A DNA stretch of 64,000 nt from Escherichia phage vB_EcoM_Ozark, in sequence record NC_054927.1; one strand, given 5' to 3'. Position 1 is the stretch's first letter. Every line of letters starts with the position of its first letter. The notes below the pieces were generated by a model that was not told the origin of the DNA, did no database searches, and saw only the letters and a program-made list of their open reading frames with translations. The position numbers and the translations under genes were made by a program. This document shows, in pieces, positions 2,776 to 8,292 of this stretch.

Positions 2776-3369
2776 TTATTTCAGAGAATTAATGTATTCC
2801 TGTACATCGGCAGAGGTAGTTTCAACCCCAGAAATATTACCATTAAAGGTTTCAACTCGAGCGAGAGTGTCTTCAATATCAACCTTAGTCAGTGCTGCAA
2901 TTTCAACTACATCATCGGCAGTACTAATTCCAAGTGCATTCGCCGCTCGAGTTTCACGGATATATTCCAATTTAACTGCAAGTTCTTGGCGAGCATCATC
3001 CAATTCAACTACTTTCTTGGCGATTTCAATTCGCATTTCAGCATACCCATCAGCTTTAGTAGTTAACTGTTCAGCTGTTCGACGATATAGTAAGCCGAGT
3101 TTAGCATGCATTGTTACATCTTGACCTTCGGAAAGAAGCTTGCGAATTTCACGCTCTTTTGATTCAGCCTGCTTATTCTTTTCGACAATAAGTTCACGAA
3201 TACGCTTTTCTTCATTAATAGATTTAACAGAAGCAGTTTTTAGATCTTTAATCTTATCAAGTAGTTTTGCTGCCGCAGCAGTATACTGTTCTTCAACAGA
3301 TAGATTTTTAGCCATAGCAGAACCAAGTTTAGTGCGAATAAACTCAACAATTTTCTTCAGTGTGTTCAT
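2776..3369 (-). CDS. coiled-coil protein, unknown function
   Basis: 197 aa, ATG start, K/E/A-rich heptad-like sequence along most of its length. Confidence 0.55.
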
Positions 3370-3412
3370 AGTATTTCCTTAGGTTAATTAAGATTTAAAA
3401 TCCATGAGAGTA

Positions 3413-3589
3413 TTATACTCCGGATAGTTTGTAAACTATTTCAACATCGCCTTTTGCTGCTTTATAACCTTCAGCCCAAGATACAACCGAGTTTTTATCT
3501 GAAGATTCAAATTCTGGCATTGGGCTTTCGCCAATGTTCACGCAGTATGTTTCTTCATTTTCGTCGAACCAAATAATTAAAGTAGTCAT
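3413..3589 (-). CDS. small acidic protein (58 aa), not in ORF track
   Basis: ATG preceded by GGAGAAATAA RBS; MTTLIIWFDENEETYCVNIGESPMPEF...; coordinates approximate. Confidence 0.35.
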   Translation of the reverse strand: MTTLIIWFDENEETYCVNIGESPMPEFESSDKNSVVSWAEGYKAAKGDVEIVYKLSGV

Positions 3590-3657
3590 TTATTTCTCCG
3601 TTTCTGTATTTGTTTTGATAAGTCTATAATAACACCGTCCTTGGTGTTTGTACACAA

Positions 3658-3921
3658 TTATTTCATATTATTGAAATGTTCTTCTGCAATTTCGTCGTTA
3701 TCATGGTAAACTTTAGAAGACAGTTTAACATAACCTTCAGCAGTGAACATGTTAATCACAACCTTTACAGTATACCACTGACCATCTTCATTACCCATTA
3801 CTGCATAGGTTTCAAACATCGGATGATCAGGACCGATAACTTTAATATCATTCACTGTACGACCAAAATCTTCTGAAACACATTTCATAAAGAAGTTGAA
3901 CAGTTCGCCGTAATTATCCAT
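3658..3921 (-). CDS. hypothetical protein
   Basis: Track start is TTG; first ATG with GGAG RBS gives MDNYGELFNFF..., 87 aa. Confidence 0.45.
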   Translation of the reverse strand: MDNYGELFNFFMKCVSEDFGRTVNDIKVIGPDHPMFETYAVMGNEDGQWYTVKVVINMFTAEGYVKLSSKVYHDNDEIAEEHFNNMK

Positions 3922-3964
3922 TTCATTCTCCAAGTTGTTTTCTGTATCAGTAGTTGATAGTTGT

Positions 3965-3994
3965 ATAGTACCATGGAAGGACAAGGATGTAAAC
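3965..3994 (-). promoter_or_regulatory. early-type promoter (GTTTAC-N18-TACTAT, minus strand)
   Basis: Plus strand atagta-N18-gtaaac just upstream of the 3921 ATG; same architecture as the IP-gene promoters. Confidence 0.4.
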
Positions 3995-4130
3995 AGTTTT
4001 GTGAAAAAATTTTTAAAAAGTTTTAGGGAATTCTAGGGTCAGGAGGGGCAATTAAAAGGTAGGATAATATATTATAAAGGGTATAAACTAAATGATGCCT
4101 AGAGAGGCCCGGAAAGGCCTAGATACCAAA

Positions 4131-4157
4131 AAGCCCCAACCTTTCGGTCGGGGCTAA
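4131..4157 (-). terminator. intrinsic terminator hairpin (minus strand)
   Basis: Reverse complement reads AGCCCCGACC-GAAA-GGTTGGGGCT followed by TTTTT; immediately 3' of 4163..4636. Confidence 0.6.
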
Positions 4158-4162
4158 GAATG

Positions 4163-4636
4163 TTATTTGATTTGTTTAGCAGACCAAATGCGGTCTTTAA
4201 TAATTTTTTGGATGTCTTCAACATACTCAAGAGAGTGAGCATGTGGGTTATCTTTAAAACTATAAGCACGAGCTAACTTTTGACCTTCAGTTTTGATTAC
4301 TAAAAGCTCTTTAAGGATAGCTTCATATCTGGAGATAATTCCTTTAACAATATTTTTTTCTTGTGTAGCTTTAGGATCTGCTTTAGGAGCAGGTTTACCC
4401 GAAGCCTTTGCAAAAGCAGCGCCAGTAGCAACTAAACTTTTCCAGGCCATACTAACTGCATTCCCTGTAAATCCTTCGGCTTTCATATCACGAGCAAATT
4501 GGAATCGTGATTCATCGGAAGCATCTTTATAGGAATATTTACCCGCGGCAATGGCTGCTTTTGCGACAGCTTGAATTTCGGTGCTAGACGCTTCATTTAA
4601 CACCGCTTCATTTAAAAATTGAGTATATGATTTCAT
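4163..4636 (-). CDS. candidate capsid-targeted internal protein-like gene
   Basis: 157 aa; N-terminus MKSYTQFLNEAVLNEA resembles the MKTYQEFIAEA leader, with two L-x-E motifs; RBS GGAA; late promoter upstream; Ala/Lys-rich body. Confidence 0.6.
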   Translation of the reverse strand: MKSYTQFLNEAVLNEASSTEIQAVAKAAIAAGKYSYKDASDESRFQFARDMKAEGFTGNAVSMAWKSLVATGAAFAKASGKPAPKADPKATQEKNIVKGIISRYEAILKELLVIKTEGQKLARAYSFKDNPHAHSLEYVEDIQKIIKDRIWSAKQIK

Positions 4637-4674
4637 CTTATTTCCTGTTTTAATTCGTGAATTTAATATACTAA

Positions 4675-4682
4675 TATTTATA
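4675..4682 (-). promoter_or_regulatory. late promoter TATAAATA (minus strand)
   Basis: Plus-strand tatttata about 40 nt upstream of the 4636 ATG, between terminator and RBS. Confidence 0.5.
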
Positions 4683-4691
4683 CTAAAAAAG

Positions 4692-4718
4692 CCCCAACCT
4701 TTTGGCTGGGGCTAAGCC
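4692..4718 (-). terminator. intrinsic terminator hairpin (minus strand), likely end of the tRNA operon
   Basis: Reverse complement AGCCCCAGCC-AAAA-GGTTGGGGCT plus TTTTT; near-identical to the 4131..4157 hairpin. Confidence 0.6.
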
Positions 4719-4765
4719 TTGCGGCAACCTTGTCGGGGTTCCACCTGCTAAGGCAAGTGTTTGTA

Positions 4766-4856
4766 CGAAACGCCGGGATTCGAACCCGGTTATTAAGTAG
4801 TTGACGCTACTCAATATTTTTAAAAGGCCATATCTCAACCATATCCGAACGTTCCG
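4766..4856 (-). ncRNA. tRNA-like stable RNA candidate (acceptor stem plus T-arm, non-canonical body)
   Basis: T-arm CCGGG-TTCGAAT-CCCGG and a 7-bp acceptor pairing CGGAACG/CGTTTCG, but no clean D or anticodon arm; position matches T4 stable RNA species 1/2. Confidence 0.3.
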
Positions 4857-5029
4857 TCAAAAACGCTACTCGGCTTACGGCAAAGATATTTCCTCGAATC
4901 GATAATTCGGTGCGCCGTTTCTGCTGTGATATAAGGGGGCATTAACAAAACATAAAGATTTATTAATGCCAGTCCTTAAACAGGGAACATCAGTCCGACG
5001 ACTTGCCGGTAGCGACCCGGCTTCTTGTC

Positions 5030-5105
5030 TGGTCGAGGCAGTAGGGATCGAACCTACGACCCAGGACTTAGAAGGTCCTTGCTCTTCCTTCTGAGCTATG
5101 CCCCG
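5030..5105 (-). tRNA. tRNA-Arg (anticodon UCU)
   Basis: Hand-folded cloverleaf: acceptor CGGGGCA/UGCCUCG, anticodon loop CUUCUAA, T-loop UUCGAUC, CCA encoded. Confidence 0.8.
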
Positions 5106-5109
5106 TAAT

Positions 5110-5185
5110 TGGGGTGACCGATGGGAGTCGAACCCATGACTACGAGAATCACAATCTCGAGTTCTACCAACTGAACTACGGCCAC
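5110..5185 (-). tRNA. tRNA-His (anticodon GUG)
   Basis: Hand-folded: anticodon stem CGAGA/UCUCG, loop UUGUGAU, discriminator C, CCA encoded. Confidence 0.75.
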
Positions 5186-5299
5186 ATTAATACCTACTCC
5201 AATAATCAAGATGTCTTCACACGAAATTAAGAGAAGAGTGATCAGTTCAACCCCTATAATCGCGTCAAGTAGATATTAATGTGACAGTTGTCACAAATT

Positions 5300-5374
5300 T
5301 GGCGGACGTGATAGGATTCGAACCTATAACCAATCGCTTAACAGGCGATCGCTCTGCCATTGAGCTACACATCC
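5300..5374 (-). tRNA. tRNA-Asn (anticodon GUU)
   Basis: Hand-folded: D-arm GCUC/GAGC, anticodon stem AUCGC/GCGAU, loop CUGUUAA, CCA encoded. Confidence 0.75.
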
Positions 5375-5378
5375 AAAT

Positions 5379-5465
5379 TGGTGGGGAGTGGTGGAGTCGA
5401 ACCACCCGAGTCGCAATGACAATGGATTTACAGTCCACACCGCTACCTCTACGGGATAACTCCCC
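5379..5465 (-). tRNA. tRNA-Tyr (anticodon GUA), long variable arm
   Basis: 87 nt; acceptor GGGGAGU/ACUCCCC, anticodon loop CUGUAAA, T-loop UUCGACU, CCA encoded. Confidence 0.75.
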
Positions 5466-5478
5466 TTAATTCTTAATT

Positions 5479-5553
5479 TGGTGGCCCTGGGTGGAATTGA
5501 ACCACCATCTGGCGATTATGAGTCGCTTGCTTGAACCTTCCAGCTACAGGGCC
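5479..5553 (-). tRNA. tRNA-Ile or Met (anticodon CAU)
   Basis: Hand-folded: acceptor GGCCCUG/CAGGGCC, anticodon loop CUCAUAA; CAU could be Met or lysidine-modified Ile. Confidence 0.75.
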
Positions 5554-5554
5554 T

Positions 5555-5630
5555 TGGTGCTGATTGACGGAATCGAACCGCCGACCTTCTCATTACAAGT
5601 GAGTTGCTCTACCTACTGAGCTAAATCAGC
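5555..5630 (-). tRNA. tRNA-Thr (anticodon UGU)
   Basis: Hand-folded: acceptor GCUGAUU/AAUCAGC, anticodon loop CUUGUAA, CCA encoded. Confidence 0.8.
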
Positions 5631-5635
5631 AAAAC

Positions 5636-5725
5636 TGGCGGAGGCGATAGGATTTGAACCTATGAGTCGCCGGAGCGACTGCCGGTTTTCAAGACCGGTG
5701 CATTAAACCACTCTGCCACGCCTCC
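5636..5725 (-). tRNA. tRNA-Ser (anticodon UGA), long variable arm
   Basis: 90 nt; acceptor GGAGGCG/CGCCUCC, anticodon stem CCGGU/ACCGG, loop CUUGAAA, CCA encoded. Confidence 0.8.
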
Positions 5726-5727
5726 AG

Positions 5728-5801
5728 TCTCCATACAAGGATTTGAACCTTGGACCTCCTGATCCCAAATCAGGCGCTCTACCAAACTGAGCTACACGGA
5801 G
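5728..5801 (-). tRNA. tRNA-Pro (anticodon UGG)
   Basis: Hand-folded: acceptor CUCCGUG/UAUGGAG with G-U pairs, anticodon loop UUUGGGA; CCA not encoded. Confidence 0.75.
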
Positions 5802-5811
5802 TAAATTAAAT

Positions 5812-5885
<74 letters not shown>

Positions 5886-5890
5886 AAATT

Positions 5891-5977
5891 TGGTGCGAGA
5901 AGTGGGACTCGAACCCACAAGGAAATCATTCCGCAGCATTTTAAGTGCTGTGCCTTTACCAATTTGACCATTCTCGC
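5891..5977 (-). tRNA. tRNA-Leu (anticodon UAA), long variable arm
   Basis: 87 nt; acceptor GCGAGAA/UUCUCGC, anticodon loop CUUAAAA, T-loop UUCGAGU, CCA encoded. Confidence 0.8.
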
Positions 5978-5983
5978 GTTATA

Positions 5984-6592
5984 TTATTTATTACGTGAAA
6001 AAGACTGTTCTATCAATTCTGGACACTTTCGTTCTATCCATTTTCTAGCTTTTTGTGGGCTTATACCTATTATTTTAGCAGCTTTACTAACCCATCCAAA
6101 TTTAGAATAATCGATTTTAACTAATTCTTCGTAAATTTCATCAGTTAAAATCTTTTCATTAATATTTACCAGTAAATGATATAATTTGTTATCATTAGCA
6201 ATTTTAATGAATCTTTTATAGTTTCCGCCTTTACTTAAACCTAATGAAGTAATTGCAGATGATATAGTAGCCGAATTTAATAATGCGTTTAAAATTTCTT
6301 CATCACTAACATTATAACGCTTTTTATTATTTTTAATATTTTTACCAGCAAAAGTATCAGTTTGCGAATGACAGTTTGGACATAATAATCTTAAATTTGA
6401 TTTAAGATGATTTTTGTTATTTCCATCAATATGGTCTAATTGCAGAACAATATGCTTATTTTGCCATTTTGAAATTTTACAAATTGCACACTCATATGGA
6501 AAAATATTTTCTTTTATTATTTTGTCTTTCAGCTTTCCTGTACTAAAATTTGGATGTTTTCCTTCAAAAATTTCAGCTAATTTAGTATCCAT
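5984..6592 (-). CDS. HNH endonuclease, likely free-standing homing endonuclease
   Basis: CAIC...LDHIDGNNKNHLKSNLRLLCPNCH is a textbook HNH motif; C-terminal helix-turn-helix-like segment; track start is TTG, moved to ATG (MDTKLAEIF...); stop 7 nt from tRNA-Leu. Confidence 0.7.
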   Translation of the reverse strand: MDTKLAEIFEGKHPNFSTGKLKDKIIKENIFPYECAICKISKWQNKHIVLQLDHIDGNNKNHLKSNLRLLCPNCHSQTDTFAGKNIKNNKKRYNVSDEEILNALLNSATISSAITSLGLSKGGNYKRFIKIANDNKLYHLLVNINEKILTDEIYEELVKIDYSKFGWVSKAAKIIGISPQKARKWIERKCPELIEQSFSRNK

Positions 6593-6702
6593 AATATGAT
6601 TCCCAATTATTAACAAAGGCTCTCAAGCAAGAACCCTTGATGATAGAGGGTATTAATCAGTGCGATATGAGTTAATAATAACAAATAATTCTTAAAGCAT
6701 AT

Positions 6703-6990
6703 TTACCATTTATGATAATACATATTTACGATGCATTCAAGACCCAAAGGATTCTTGAAAATATCATATTCAAGAGGACCTTTTTCCGTTTCAATAAAGA
6801 AATCAAAATTTACTGTATTAAATTTACGGTCTTCCTTCACTAATTTAACCTGAGAAGATGAACGGTCAATGTAAACCTTTTCAACTTCAAAACATGTTAA
6901 AATGCCATAATCATCAATCAAGGCTTTAGCTGCTTCTTGATCATATTTATATCCATTTTCAACGGATGATACTTTCGCATAAAGAATCAT
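6703..6990 (-). CDS. hypothetical protein
   Basis: 95 aa, ATG start, no recognised motif. Confidence 0.5.
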   Translation of the reverse strand: MILYAKVSSVENGYKYDQEAAKALIDDYGILTCFEVEKVYIDRSSSQVKLVKEDRKFNTVNFDFFIETEKGPLEYDIFKNPLGLECIVNMYYHKW

Positions 6991-6992
6991 TA

Positions 6993-7376
6993 TCAGCCTT
7001 CATCAACAATAGTATGAGTATGGGCATTTACGATTTGCCACCAATCAAAGCGATTAGAACCATACATCGGTTTGTTTTCATTTTCTTTGATAATATCACG
7101 GAGTTCATCTTCGGTAGCGGCTTTCGCGATTAAATCAGCATATCCACCACGAGGATAATAATTATCACCTGCAAAAAGTAAAAAATTTGGTGTAATATTA
7201 TTGAACTCTTCAAGAGTAATAACTGTTCCTGATGGTAATTGAACAATCTCTACATAGTTATATCCTAATTTTTGAGCAGCATCTACTGCTTCAAGCAGAG
7301 TATCATGAGCCCGTCCTATTTGGCAATTTGGCTTTTTAGATGGATTAGCCTGATAATCCGCGTACACTTTATACAT
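6993..7376 (-). CDS. hypothetical protein
   Basis: Start set at internal ATG (MYKVYADYQ...) with RBS AAAGGTG, 127 aa; abuts the upstream ORF stop. Confidence 0.5.
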   Translation of the reverse strand: MYKVYADYQANPSKKPNCQIGRAHDTLLEAVDAAQKLGYNYVEIVQLPSGTVITLEEFNNITPNFLLFAGDNYYPRGGYADLIAKAATEDELRDIIKENENKPMYGSNRFDWWQIVNAHTHTIVDEG

Positions 7377-7377
7377 T

Positions 7378-7563
7378 CTATTCACCTTTAGAAATTTTAT
7401 CCATAACGATAGCAATTAAACCAATTACAAATGCTACTACAAGTGAAAACACATTTTCTGCTGTAGTTAATAATCCGCATATAAATCCAACAAACATTGA
7501 AAAACTAAAAGCGGAAGCAGAAATTGCAATAGCAACATTTCGAATTAATTCACAGCGTTTCAT
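7378..7563 (-). CDS. small membrane protein
   Basis: 61 aa, ATG start, single long hydrophobic segment. Confidence 0.45.
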   Translation of the reverse strand: MKRCELIRNVAIAISASAFSFSMFVGFICGLLTTAENVFSLVVAFVIGLIAIVMDKISKGE

Positions 7564-7582
7564 TTTATTCTCCTCAGTAGTT

Positions 7583-7621
7583 GATAGGGTAATAGTATCA
7601 CTACCCTATCTAAAAGTAAAC
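7583..7621 (-). promoter_or_regulatory. promoter-hairpin cassette (PeSL-like): early promoter with -10 inside a stem-loop
   Basis: Plus strand gatagggTAATAGTATCACTAccctatc (7-bp inverted repeat) followed by gtaaac; minus strand reads GTTTAC-N18-TACTAT. Confidence 0.5.
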
Positions 7622-7855
7622 TTATTTTTTACGAAAAATTGATTTATTTTCTGCTGCCCATTTTTCAATAACTGCAGCAGGACCAGTAACAACAATTTTA
7701 TCACCGTAATCTTCTGCAGCGAGTTGACCGAAATTATCTAATGCATCACGAAGAACTCCATGAGGCATTTCGCCCATTTTATCCTTCTTGCCAATGTAAA
7801 TAAACTCAACTTTTACATCAACAGCTTCAGCAATAAATTCTTGATATGTTTTCAT
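7622..7855 (-). CDS. internal protein (IPI-like, capsid-targeted)
   Basis: Start set at second ATG with GGAG RBS: MKTYQEFIAEAVD..., 77 aa; position matches ipI (between tRNAs and 57B). Confidence 0.65.
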   Translation of the reverse strand: MKTYQEFIAEAVDVKVEFIYIGKKDKMGEMPHGVLRDALDNFGQLAAEDYGDKIVVTGPAAVIEKWAAENKSIFRKK

Positions 7856-7880
7856 TTTATTCTCCAATTTCACATTTGTT

Positions 7881-7919
7881 TTGATAGGGTAATAGTATCA
7901 CTACTAAAACCCCGTGTAA
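7881..7919 (-). promoter_or_regulatory. promoter-hairpin cassette (PeSL-like), copy 2
   Basis: gatagggtaatagtatcactac followed by gtaaacaactttgtgaaatt; same core as copies 1 and 3. Confidence 0.5.
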
Positions 7920-7940
7920 ACAACTTTGTGAAATTGTTTA

Positions 7941-8231
7941 TTACAAAAGATTTTTAGCAATAATCTTGAGATGTGCTGCAGAAATGTGTTTAGCTTTAAA
8001 CAACGCAGTTTCTTCGGCAGGAGAGATAACGATTGTAGCACCATCCTTTTTAGCAGACCACCCATCACCTAGGTAAACAGTACCTTTGATTTCTTCGCCA
8101 TCAACCAGACTAATCATTGGTTTACCTTCTCGTCCTTTATTTGCTTTAATAACTTCAGAAGTAAGAGTAGCTTCGGTAATGGTAGAAACCGGGGTAGTTG
8201 TAGTAGAAGTAAATTCTTTAAATGTTTTCAT
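7941..8231 (-). CDS. internal protein-like (capsid-targeted)
   Basis: 96 aa; MKTFKEFTSTTTTPVSTITE with I-T-E cleavage motif; RBS AGGAA. Confidence 0.6.
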   Translation of the reverse strand: MKTFKEFTSTTTTPVSTITEATLTSEVIKANKGREGKPMISLVDGEEIKGTVYLGDGWSAKKDGATIVISPAEETALFKAKHISAAHLKIIAKNLL

Positions 8232-8252: not shown

Positions 8253-8292
8253 TGATGAGGTAATAGTATCACTACCTCATCAGTATGTAAAC
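8253..8292 (-). promoter_or_regulatory. promoter-hairpin cassette (PeSL-like), copy 3
   Basis: tgatgaggTAATAGTATCACTAcctcatca (10-bp inverted repeat around the same core) followed by gtaaacaactttgtgaaatt. Confidence 0.5.

Follow-up and report, generated by a model that had tools for sequence, protein, structure and literature searches.

Introduction

The T4 endonuclease SegB cuts tRNA genes, and its homing erases the tRNA markers of the recipient phage T2; processing of the tRNAs has been put forward as a limit on segB expression (PMC2330249). An association between HNH genes and viral tRNA clusters has been described in mycobacteriophages and other viruses, together with a proposed role in turnover of the tRNA repertoire (PMC6409571). 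The phage T5 enzyme F-TflIV, cited by title as a site-specific DNA endonuclease, has been grouped with T4 MobA-E in group 1 of the His-Me finger nucleases (PMC5714182).

Here we analysed a 64,000 nt stretch of the genome of Escherichia phage vB_EcoM_Ozark (NC_054927.1), referred to throughout as the window, in which an open reading frame (ORF) with an HNH motif stands at the head of a tRNA array. We assign a probability of about 0.72 to the reading that a free-standing homing endonuclease of the HNH (His-Me finger) type, from a lineage resembling T5 F-TflIV, is encoded by this ORF, which has replaced tRNA-Gln; the nuclease activity and homing implied by this reading are argued by analogy with named enzymes.

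Results

The HNH gene and its surroundings

The window belongs to Tequatrovirus (T4-like), with ~97% identity to phages slur03, slur14 and MLF4 over the 2.9 kb around the HNH gene. Genes of this region run on the minus strand in the order gp1, 57A, 57B, ipI, trna.4, trna.3, trna.2, the HNH ORF and ten tRNAs. The ORF lies where a preliminary description of this DNA had placed it, at 5984-6592, and encodes 202 aa. The longest mechanical ORF begins further upstream at an in-frame TTG (6616) that is without homologue support; the ATG at 6592 is favoured as the start because the equivalent Met is the first residue in every homologue aligned and database annotations give 609 nt for all copies. Its stop codon, previously said to lie ~7 nt from tRNA-Leu, is indeed adjacent to that gene, with the distance corrected to 6 nt.

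6703..6990, minus strand: trna.2 homologue, upstream neighbour of the HNH gene, 98% amino acid identity to T4
6593..6702, minus strand: trna.2-HNH intergenic region, the left homology arm, almost the same in sequence as the region preceding tRNA-Gln in T4
5984..6592, minus strand: HNH endonuclease ORF, 202 aa (ATG 6590-6592, stop TAA 5984-5986)
5978..5983, minus strand: 6-nt spacer between the HNH stop codon and nucleotide 1 of tRNA-Leu
5891..5977, minus strand: tRNA-Leu(UAA), first gene of the remaining array and right-hand homology boundary
5030..5977, minus strand: tRNA array Leu Gly Pro Ser Thr Met Tyr Asn (114-nt spacer) His Arg

The array contains neither tRNA-Gln nor segB, and an Rfam search of 4000-8000 returned tRNAs only. 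The 114-nt spacer between tRNA-Asn and tRNA-His (5186-5299, minus strand) has no tRNA or Rfam match and a predicted fold of -31.5 kcal/mol (z = -3.46; one of 200 shuffles was as stable); in every locus examined it co-occurs with tRNA-His and is absent where tRNA-His is absent. It may be a processing element or encode a small structured RNA. In slur14, ACG-C40 and CM8 a 351-nt trna.2-like ORF lies downstream of tRNA-Arg; it is missing from the window. Approximately 400 nt upstream of the HNH gene, trna.3 (6993-7376, minus strand) looks like a local allelic replacement, since its product has 57% identity to the T4 protein, against 98% for the flanking trna.2 and trna.4, and 89% identity to its counterpart in L011, a T4-like contig that is far more distant.

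The protein has an HNH core and two putative DNA-binding domains

HNH or His-Me finger nucleases are marked by a catalytic His that acts as general base, a conserved Asn and a metal-ligand His or Asn. The HNH motif that had been reported for this ORF, CAIC ... LDHIDGNNKNHLKSNLRLLCPNCH, is present, and its catalytic and zinc residues do not vary among 32 aligned homologues, in which C35, C38, W43, H54, G57, N66, L67, C71, P72, N73, C74, H75 and T78 are all invariant. This set includes the H-N-H catalytic residues H54 (in LDH), N66, N73 and H75, as well as the two CxxC pairs (C35-x2-C38 and C71-x2-C74) of a structural zinc site of the McrA/Mob-type subgroup, and the protein has the features of the beta-beta-alpha-metal fold by which these nucleases are defined. 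Family classification by profile search, the check proposed in the preliminary description, gave an end-to-end match to PHROG 14736 'HNH endonuclease' (E=5e-124); the Pfam HNH family PF01844 scored below its gathering threshold for the window protein (17.3 vs 21.4 bits), and precomputed PF01844 matches are present on several homologues.

6338..6592, minus strand: N-terminal HNH (His-Me finger) nuclease domain, residues 1-85
6368-6490, minus strand: CxxC...DH...N...CPNCH motif, residues 35-75
6308..6337, minus strand: flexible linker, residues 86-95, with pLDDT <50 at residues 88-92
6182..6307, minus strand: middle three-helix domain, residues 96-137, putatively DNA-binding (AlphaFold model and homologue alignment)
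5993..6145, minus strand: C-terminal helical HTH-like domain, residues 150-200, with the conserved GWVSKAAKIIGISPQKARKWI

A C-terminal helix-turn-helix-like (HTH-like) region had likewise been suspected. It is borne out by weak Pfam matches to HTH_29, P22_Cro, HTH_17 and HTH_28 at residues 164-192, by a conserved block in the homologue alignment (GWVSKAxKIIGISPQKxRKW), within which G166, W167, P179, Q180 and K181 are invariant in the 10 nearest homologues, and by an AlphaFold model of high confidence in which the region is helical. In the model the two small helical domains that follow the HNH domain both look DNA-binding.

These domains bear on the possibility that RNA is the substrate of the HNH domain, which might for instance cut host or rival tRNA much as PtuB (Septu, retron Eco7) cuts tRNA-Tyr. 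The gene does lie within a tRNA operon, and HNH-containing Septu cleaves tRNA-Tyr (PMC13096335), yet we consider an RNA target most improbable: the two HTH-type domains, as modelled, suggest that the protein recognises double-stranded DNA, it resembles PtuB in structure no more than it resembles other HNH domains, and the closest named relative is F-TflIV, a DNA endonuclease according to the title under which it is cited (PMC5714182).

Precise replacement of tRNA-Gln

T4 has, in succession, trna.2, an intergenic region of 97 nt, tRNA-Gln, a spacer of 1 nt and tRNA-Leu. The window aligns to T4 with near identity up to nucleotide 9 of tRNA-Gln, is then occupied by the ORF, and regains identity at nucleotide 1 of tRNA-Leu, so that in alignments with both T4 and slur14 a cassette of ~621 nt stands in place of tRNA-Gln nucleotides 10-73 and the 1-nt spacer. 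Junction coordinates were compared in 18 loci. The first nine nucleotides of tRNA-Gln survive as a relic immediately upstream of the ORF.

6597..6605, minus strand: relic of tRNA-Gln, first 9 nt, TGGGAATCA (T4: TGGGAATTA), from alignment with T4

Position 8 of a tRNA is the universally conserved U8. This position is T in 9/9 Gln-bearing loci, and in the relic it is C in six of the nine HNH-bearing loci, a drift that is expected of a fragment freed from tRNA constraint.

The preliminary description had recognised that an HNH enzyme occupies the expected position of tRNA-Gln, which the T4 alignment resolves into a precise replacement, and had suggested that tRNA-Gln was displaced. It has been lost from its slot and not relocated, being deleted except for the 9-nt relic. 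There is no tRNA-Gln anywhere in the 64-kb window; relocation was also considered for JoYop, in which a T4 query containing tRNA-Gln has a single place of match. Locus tags gt001-gt010 in slur14, ACG-C40 and teqhad list ten non-Gln tRNAs, which suggests that these are the full set in each phage. No allele with both tRNA-Gln and the HNH gene was found in Tequatrovirus among 62 GenBank records, 10 metagenomic or other contigs and 7 IMG/VR loci.

T4 does carry the GIY-YIG endonuclease gene segB in its tRNA region, as had been noted, and it is located downstream, between tRNA-Ile/Met and tRNA-Arg. The HNH enzyme is unrelated to segB and sits in a different slot; the idea of an independent endonuclease acquisition is therefore upheld.

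A single origin followed by spread across backbones

The HNH gene occurs in 62 GenBank phage records, each with at least 97.9% nucleotide identity. Alignment with relatives to find empty sites, as had been proposed, identified ~450 Tequatrovirus records (about 446-456) with either a contiguous trna.2-tRNA-Gln-tRNA-Leu region or the conserved flanks only; 508 records match a T4 trna.2-Gln-Leu-Gly query, including the 62 HNH-bearing ones (84-87% query cover), which were excluded from the empty-site count. The empty site thus accounts for ~88% and the HNH gene for ~12% of Tequatrovirus records. Universal conservation at this position and missing catalytic residues, the two patterns held in advance to count against the proposal, were both contradicted: empty sites are common and the residues are intact.

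A synthetic query in which the left-hand and right-hand junctions were fused was fully covered in exactly the 62 HNH-bearing records, over the same 728-nt span in all except KarlGJung, where a 9-nt in-frame duplication in the linker extends it to 737 nt. (KarlGJung/Bas37 is a member of the public BASEL phage collection.) Both junctions are common to 62/62 records, and we therefore conclude that the replacement arose once and then spread. The comparisons show one ancestral Tequatrovirus event in which the cassette replaced tRNA-Gln nucleotides 10-73 and the spacer, leaving the upstream intergenic region and tRNA-Leu intact. All 19 HNH-bearing loci that were scanned (the window, L001, L004, L016-L021 and L035-L044) have tRNA-Leu 6-7 nt past the stop codon and no tRNA-Gln.

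Arrays of at least five different architectures lie downstream of the cassette, and its upstream surroundings likewise come in several forms. The downstream arrays carrying the HNH cassette are:

array with tRNA-His
array without tRNA-His
array with a 666-nt segB-type gene
array with a 609-nt GIY-YIG gene replacing tRNA-Pro
array with a 160-aa ORF replacing tRNA-Thr

Judged from sequence comparison, this distribution, incongruent with the flanking backbone, shows lateral movement across backbones. No flanking SNP, not even one within 30 nt of the junction, was linked to the gene when 9 HNH-bearing loci were compared with 9 HNH-lacking ones over 1.5 kb on the upstream and 1 kb on the downstream side (smallest Fisher p = 0.08). 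The flanks being unlinked, no co-conversion tract is visible; a co-conversion haplotype was sought in these loci and set aside, as no conversion tract could be defined. The spread could equally come from the generally high recombination of T4-like phages. Carriage of ~12% does not look like that of an aggressively sweeping element.

Eight equal-length copies of the gene segregate for 11 synonymous and 2 nonsynonymous sites (pN/pS ~0.04), a ratio indicating that the protein is maintained by purifying selection, and all sampled copies are full length. Both amino acid polymorphisms (residues 90 and 92) lie in the linker, as does the 3-aa insertion of KarlGJung.

The absence of a flanking co-conversion haplotype would also be expected if the HNH gene and tRNA-Gln were merely accessory alleles shuffled by ordinary homologous recombination, with an enzyme that is inactive or irrelevant to its own spread. 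Such passive exchange finds further support in the non-nuclease ORFs that replace or interrupt tRNA slots (160 aa for tRNA-Thr in pSe_SNUABM_01; 171 aa upstream of the Gln/HNH position), from which it follows that the array is generally plastic. We nevertheless regard it as quite unlikely. Invariant catalytic residues together with a pN/pS of ~0.04 make an inactive relic improbable, three different endonuclease genes (HNH, the 609-nt GIY-YIG gene and segB) occupy slots of one small array, and homologues recur in the tRNA arrays of unrelated phages.

Parallel swaps in related arrays

Among Tequatrovirus arrays an HNH gene is found in the slot of tRNA-Gln, a GIY-YIG gene in that of tRNA-Pro and segB in that of tRNA-Tyr/Asn. 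The gene in the tRNA-Pro slot encodes a 202-aa 'SegB-like' protein with GIY-YIG and NUMOD3 domains and replaces the tRNA exactly in slur07 (L003, 2526-3134) and CM8 (L004, 3077-3685): homology to T4 and the window stops in the Gly-Pro spacer and is restored at nucleotide 1 of tRNA-Ser, a few nucleotides past the stop codon. This swap has the same design as that of HNH for tRNA-Gln, and CM8 has both. In pSe_SNUABM_01 (L019), whose array reads Leu, Gly, Pro, Ser, an ORF, Met, a segB-type gene and Arg, the 160-aa ORF (4065-4547; no Pfam match) lies in the tRNA-Thr slot, which is therefore a third tRNA slot occupied by an ORF. The 171-aa ORF, also without a Pfam match, is situated between trna.2 and the Gln/HNH slot in slur07 (1638-2153), CM8, phiD1, teqhad, L035 and L036; it is found in relatives of both HNH states and is absent from the window and T4.

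A wider family associated with tRNA arrays

A large protein collection contains >5,500 homologues at E <=1e-5. The closest, with 68% and 58% identity, come from T4-like contigs of metagenomic origin, in which their genes occupy the syntenic position, heading a tRNA array and with gp1, 57B and trna.x genes upstream; related HNH genes at array heads in such distant T4-like phages indicate that the lineage has long been associated with this locus. Apart from the Tequatrovirus copies, no closer relatives of the 68%-identical homologue (P0002) were found in GenBank. The HNH protein is 58-68% identical in these distant contigs, compared with 44-54% for gp1 and 42% for trna.2.

The contig encoding the 68% homologue (L012) has the gene starting 14 nt after an intact tRNA-Gln, with rnaD-like sequence next. 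Homologues of 41-45% identity that were looked up lie inside co-oriented tRNA arrays of other phages: in two (L026 and L028) the stop codon overlaps tRNA-Lys, and in a third (L029) the gene is between tRNA-Gln and tRNA-Asp. A further homologue (L033, which aligns to 57% of the query at 49% identity) is ~500 nt upstream of tRNAs, and the only context examined without a nearby tRNA is that of L031/L032. Across the homologues of 41-68% identity, two directly follow tRNA-Gln, and three end within 7 nt of the next tRNA or overlap it. With tRNA-Gln intact beside the homologue in L012 and L029, its deletion is evidently not required in the HNH family.

The tRNA region of L012 consists of tRNA-Met, tRNA-Gln, the HNH gene, stable-RNA-like sequence and tRNA-Met; the ~400-nt noncoding stretch after the HNH homologue (4604-5009) contains rnaD-like CAAGTCGTCGAACTGACGTTCCCTGTT, compared by eye only with CAAGTCGTCGGACTGATGTTCCCTGTT of the window. 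In the 16-tRNA array of the unrelated metagenomic phage L026, the stretch 3001-4436 holds the 42%-identical HNH homologue, whose stop overlaps the first tRNA-Lys by ~10 nt, then two tRNA-Lys genes and after them a SegE-like GIY-YIG gene, so two endonuclease families are together in one array.

It is possible, and we propose it tentatively, that this HNH-HTH lineage consists of specialist homing endonucleases which recognise tRNA genes, especially tRNA-Gln, as DNA targets and thereby remodel phage tRNA repertoires.

The long association also raises the question of domestication, in which the nuclease would be kept for the benefit of the phage and not as a purely selfish homing element, whether by excluding competing T-even genomes or by introducing breaks that promote recombination of the tRNA/anti-defence locus or its segmental amplification. 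Strong purifying selection on the nuclease and DNA-binding-type domains, persistence of the lineage at array heads in distant T4-like phages and conservation of the HNH protein beyond that of its neighbours all agree with such a role, and SegB was recently found to drive tRNA-locus amplification that escapes Septu (PMC13096335). Set against this are the patchy distribution (~12% of Tequatrovirus records) and a carriage cost of one tRNA gene. We think domestication unlikely as the better description of the gene; it is in any case compatible with homing and not exclusive of it.

Expression and a model for homing

The operon has the following candidate control and downstream elements:

8263-8291 and 7892-7920, minus strand: two T4-early-type promoter-like sites (TTTACA-17-TACTAT with TG)
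4909-5025, minus strand: rnaD-like sequence, 86% identity to T4
4764-4902, minus strand: rnaC, 100% identity to T4 species 1 RNA
4690-4713, minus strand: strong terminator-like hairpin closing the operon

No convincing promoter-like site was seen directly upstream of the HNH gene. The two early-type sites are the likely source of a transcript on which the HNH gene would be joined to the upstream trna.4-.2 ORFs and the tRNAs. The only Shine-Dalgarno-like element of the gene is a GGGA in the relic, 8 nt upstream of the ATG, which may allow weak ribosome binding. A fold test of the 3' end of the ORF gave no hairpin (z = 0.13). Were RNase P to process the 5' end of tRNA-Leu, the message would stop 6 nt beyond the stop codon and lack a protective hairpin; expression of the HNH gene is on that account probably low, as proposed for segB.

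By analogy with SegB and the T5 F-Tfl enzymes, we suggest that in a mixed infection the HNH enzyme would nick or cut the tRNA-Gln-bearing allele of a co-infecting relative, while its own genome, lacking the target sequence, would be immune. Repair from the HNH-bearing genome, with the intergenic region and tRNA-Leu as arms, would then convert tRNA-Gln to the HNH gene at the price of one tRNA.

Discussion

HNH genes in phage tRNA clusters are already known (PMC6409571; PMC2330249), and the gene described here is an expected kind of element, annotated as 'HNH endonuclease' or 'homing endonuclease' in many GenBank records. In a literature search, no characterisation of the gene and no account of its replacement of tRNA-Gln came to light. 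What is modestly new is the exact one-for-one exchange of a tRNA for an endonuclease gene with a relic left behind, its single origin combined with unlinked flanks, the recurrence of the lineage next to tRNA-Gln and the parallel swaps in relatives. The locus provides a clean natural example of a homing-type gene swapped for a tRNA gene, in which the relic is datable and relatives with the empty site number in the hundreds. If the tRNA-Gln gene is the target, a second and mechanistically unrelated endonuclease would join SegB in the model of homing at the T-even tRNA locus, and this would help to explain why near-identical T4-like phages differ in their tRNA repertoires. Phage tRNAs counter tRNA-targeting host defences. 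Variation in the repertoire therefore bears on their use against tRNA-cleaving immunity, and selfish endonucleases would, if the lineage does specialise in tRNA genes, set which counter-defence tRNAs a phage keeps.

Comparison with known systems

The nearest named relative of the window protein is T5 F-TflIV (hegA), with 35% identity over residues 16-184 (170 aa; BLASTP E=2e-22) and, by tblastn, 34.7% identity over 84% of the query; several database records, that of ACG-C40 included, label the protein of the window 'similar to T5 H-N-H endonuclease TflIV'. The CxxC...DH...N...CPNCH core and the C-terminal HTH-like segment align between the two, and hegA, located in the tRNA region of T5, is also co-oriented with tRNAs and has its start 23 nt past one of them. 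F-TflIV differs in its length of 227 aa, with a ~55-aa N-terminal extension, and in a gap that faces the middle helical domain of the window protein (residues 96-137; ~110-150 in the alignment). T5 itself belongs to Demerecviridae and has other neighbouring tRNAs, and replacement of a tRNA is not known for hegA.

T4 SegB resembles the HNH gene in being free-standing, co-oriented within the same tRNA operon, placed so as to end right before the next tRNA, and polymorphic for presence or absence among T-even phages; HY03 and pSe_SNUABM_01 carry both genes. It differs in having a GIY-YIG fold and in its slot between tRNA-Ile/Met and tRNA-Arg, and cleavage of tRNA genes by SegB has been demonstrated experimentally, whereas cleavage by the HNH protein is a prediction from sequence. 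T4 MobA-MobE share with the HNH gene a place in the His-Me finger group (PF01844 clan, by literature classification; PMC5714182), a T4-group host and a free-standing intergenic position; T4 was absent among the tblastn matches listed for the window protein, and the Mob genes lie at other loci, none within the tRNA array. The HNH genes in tRNA clusters of mycobacteriophages and other phages belong to other sequence lineages, and it is for the present cassette that the one-for-one swap with its 9-nt relic is documented here.
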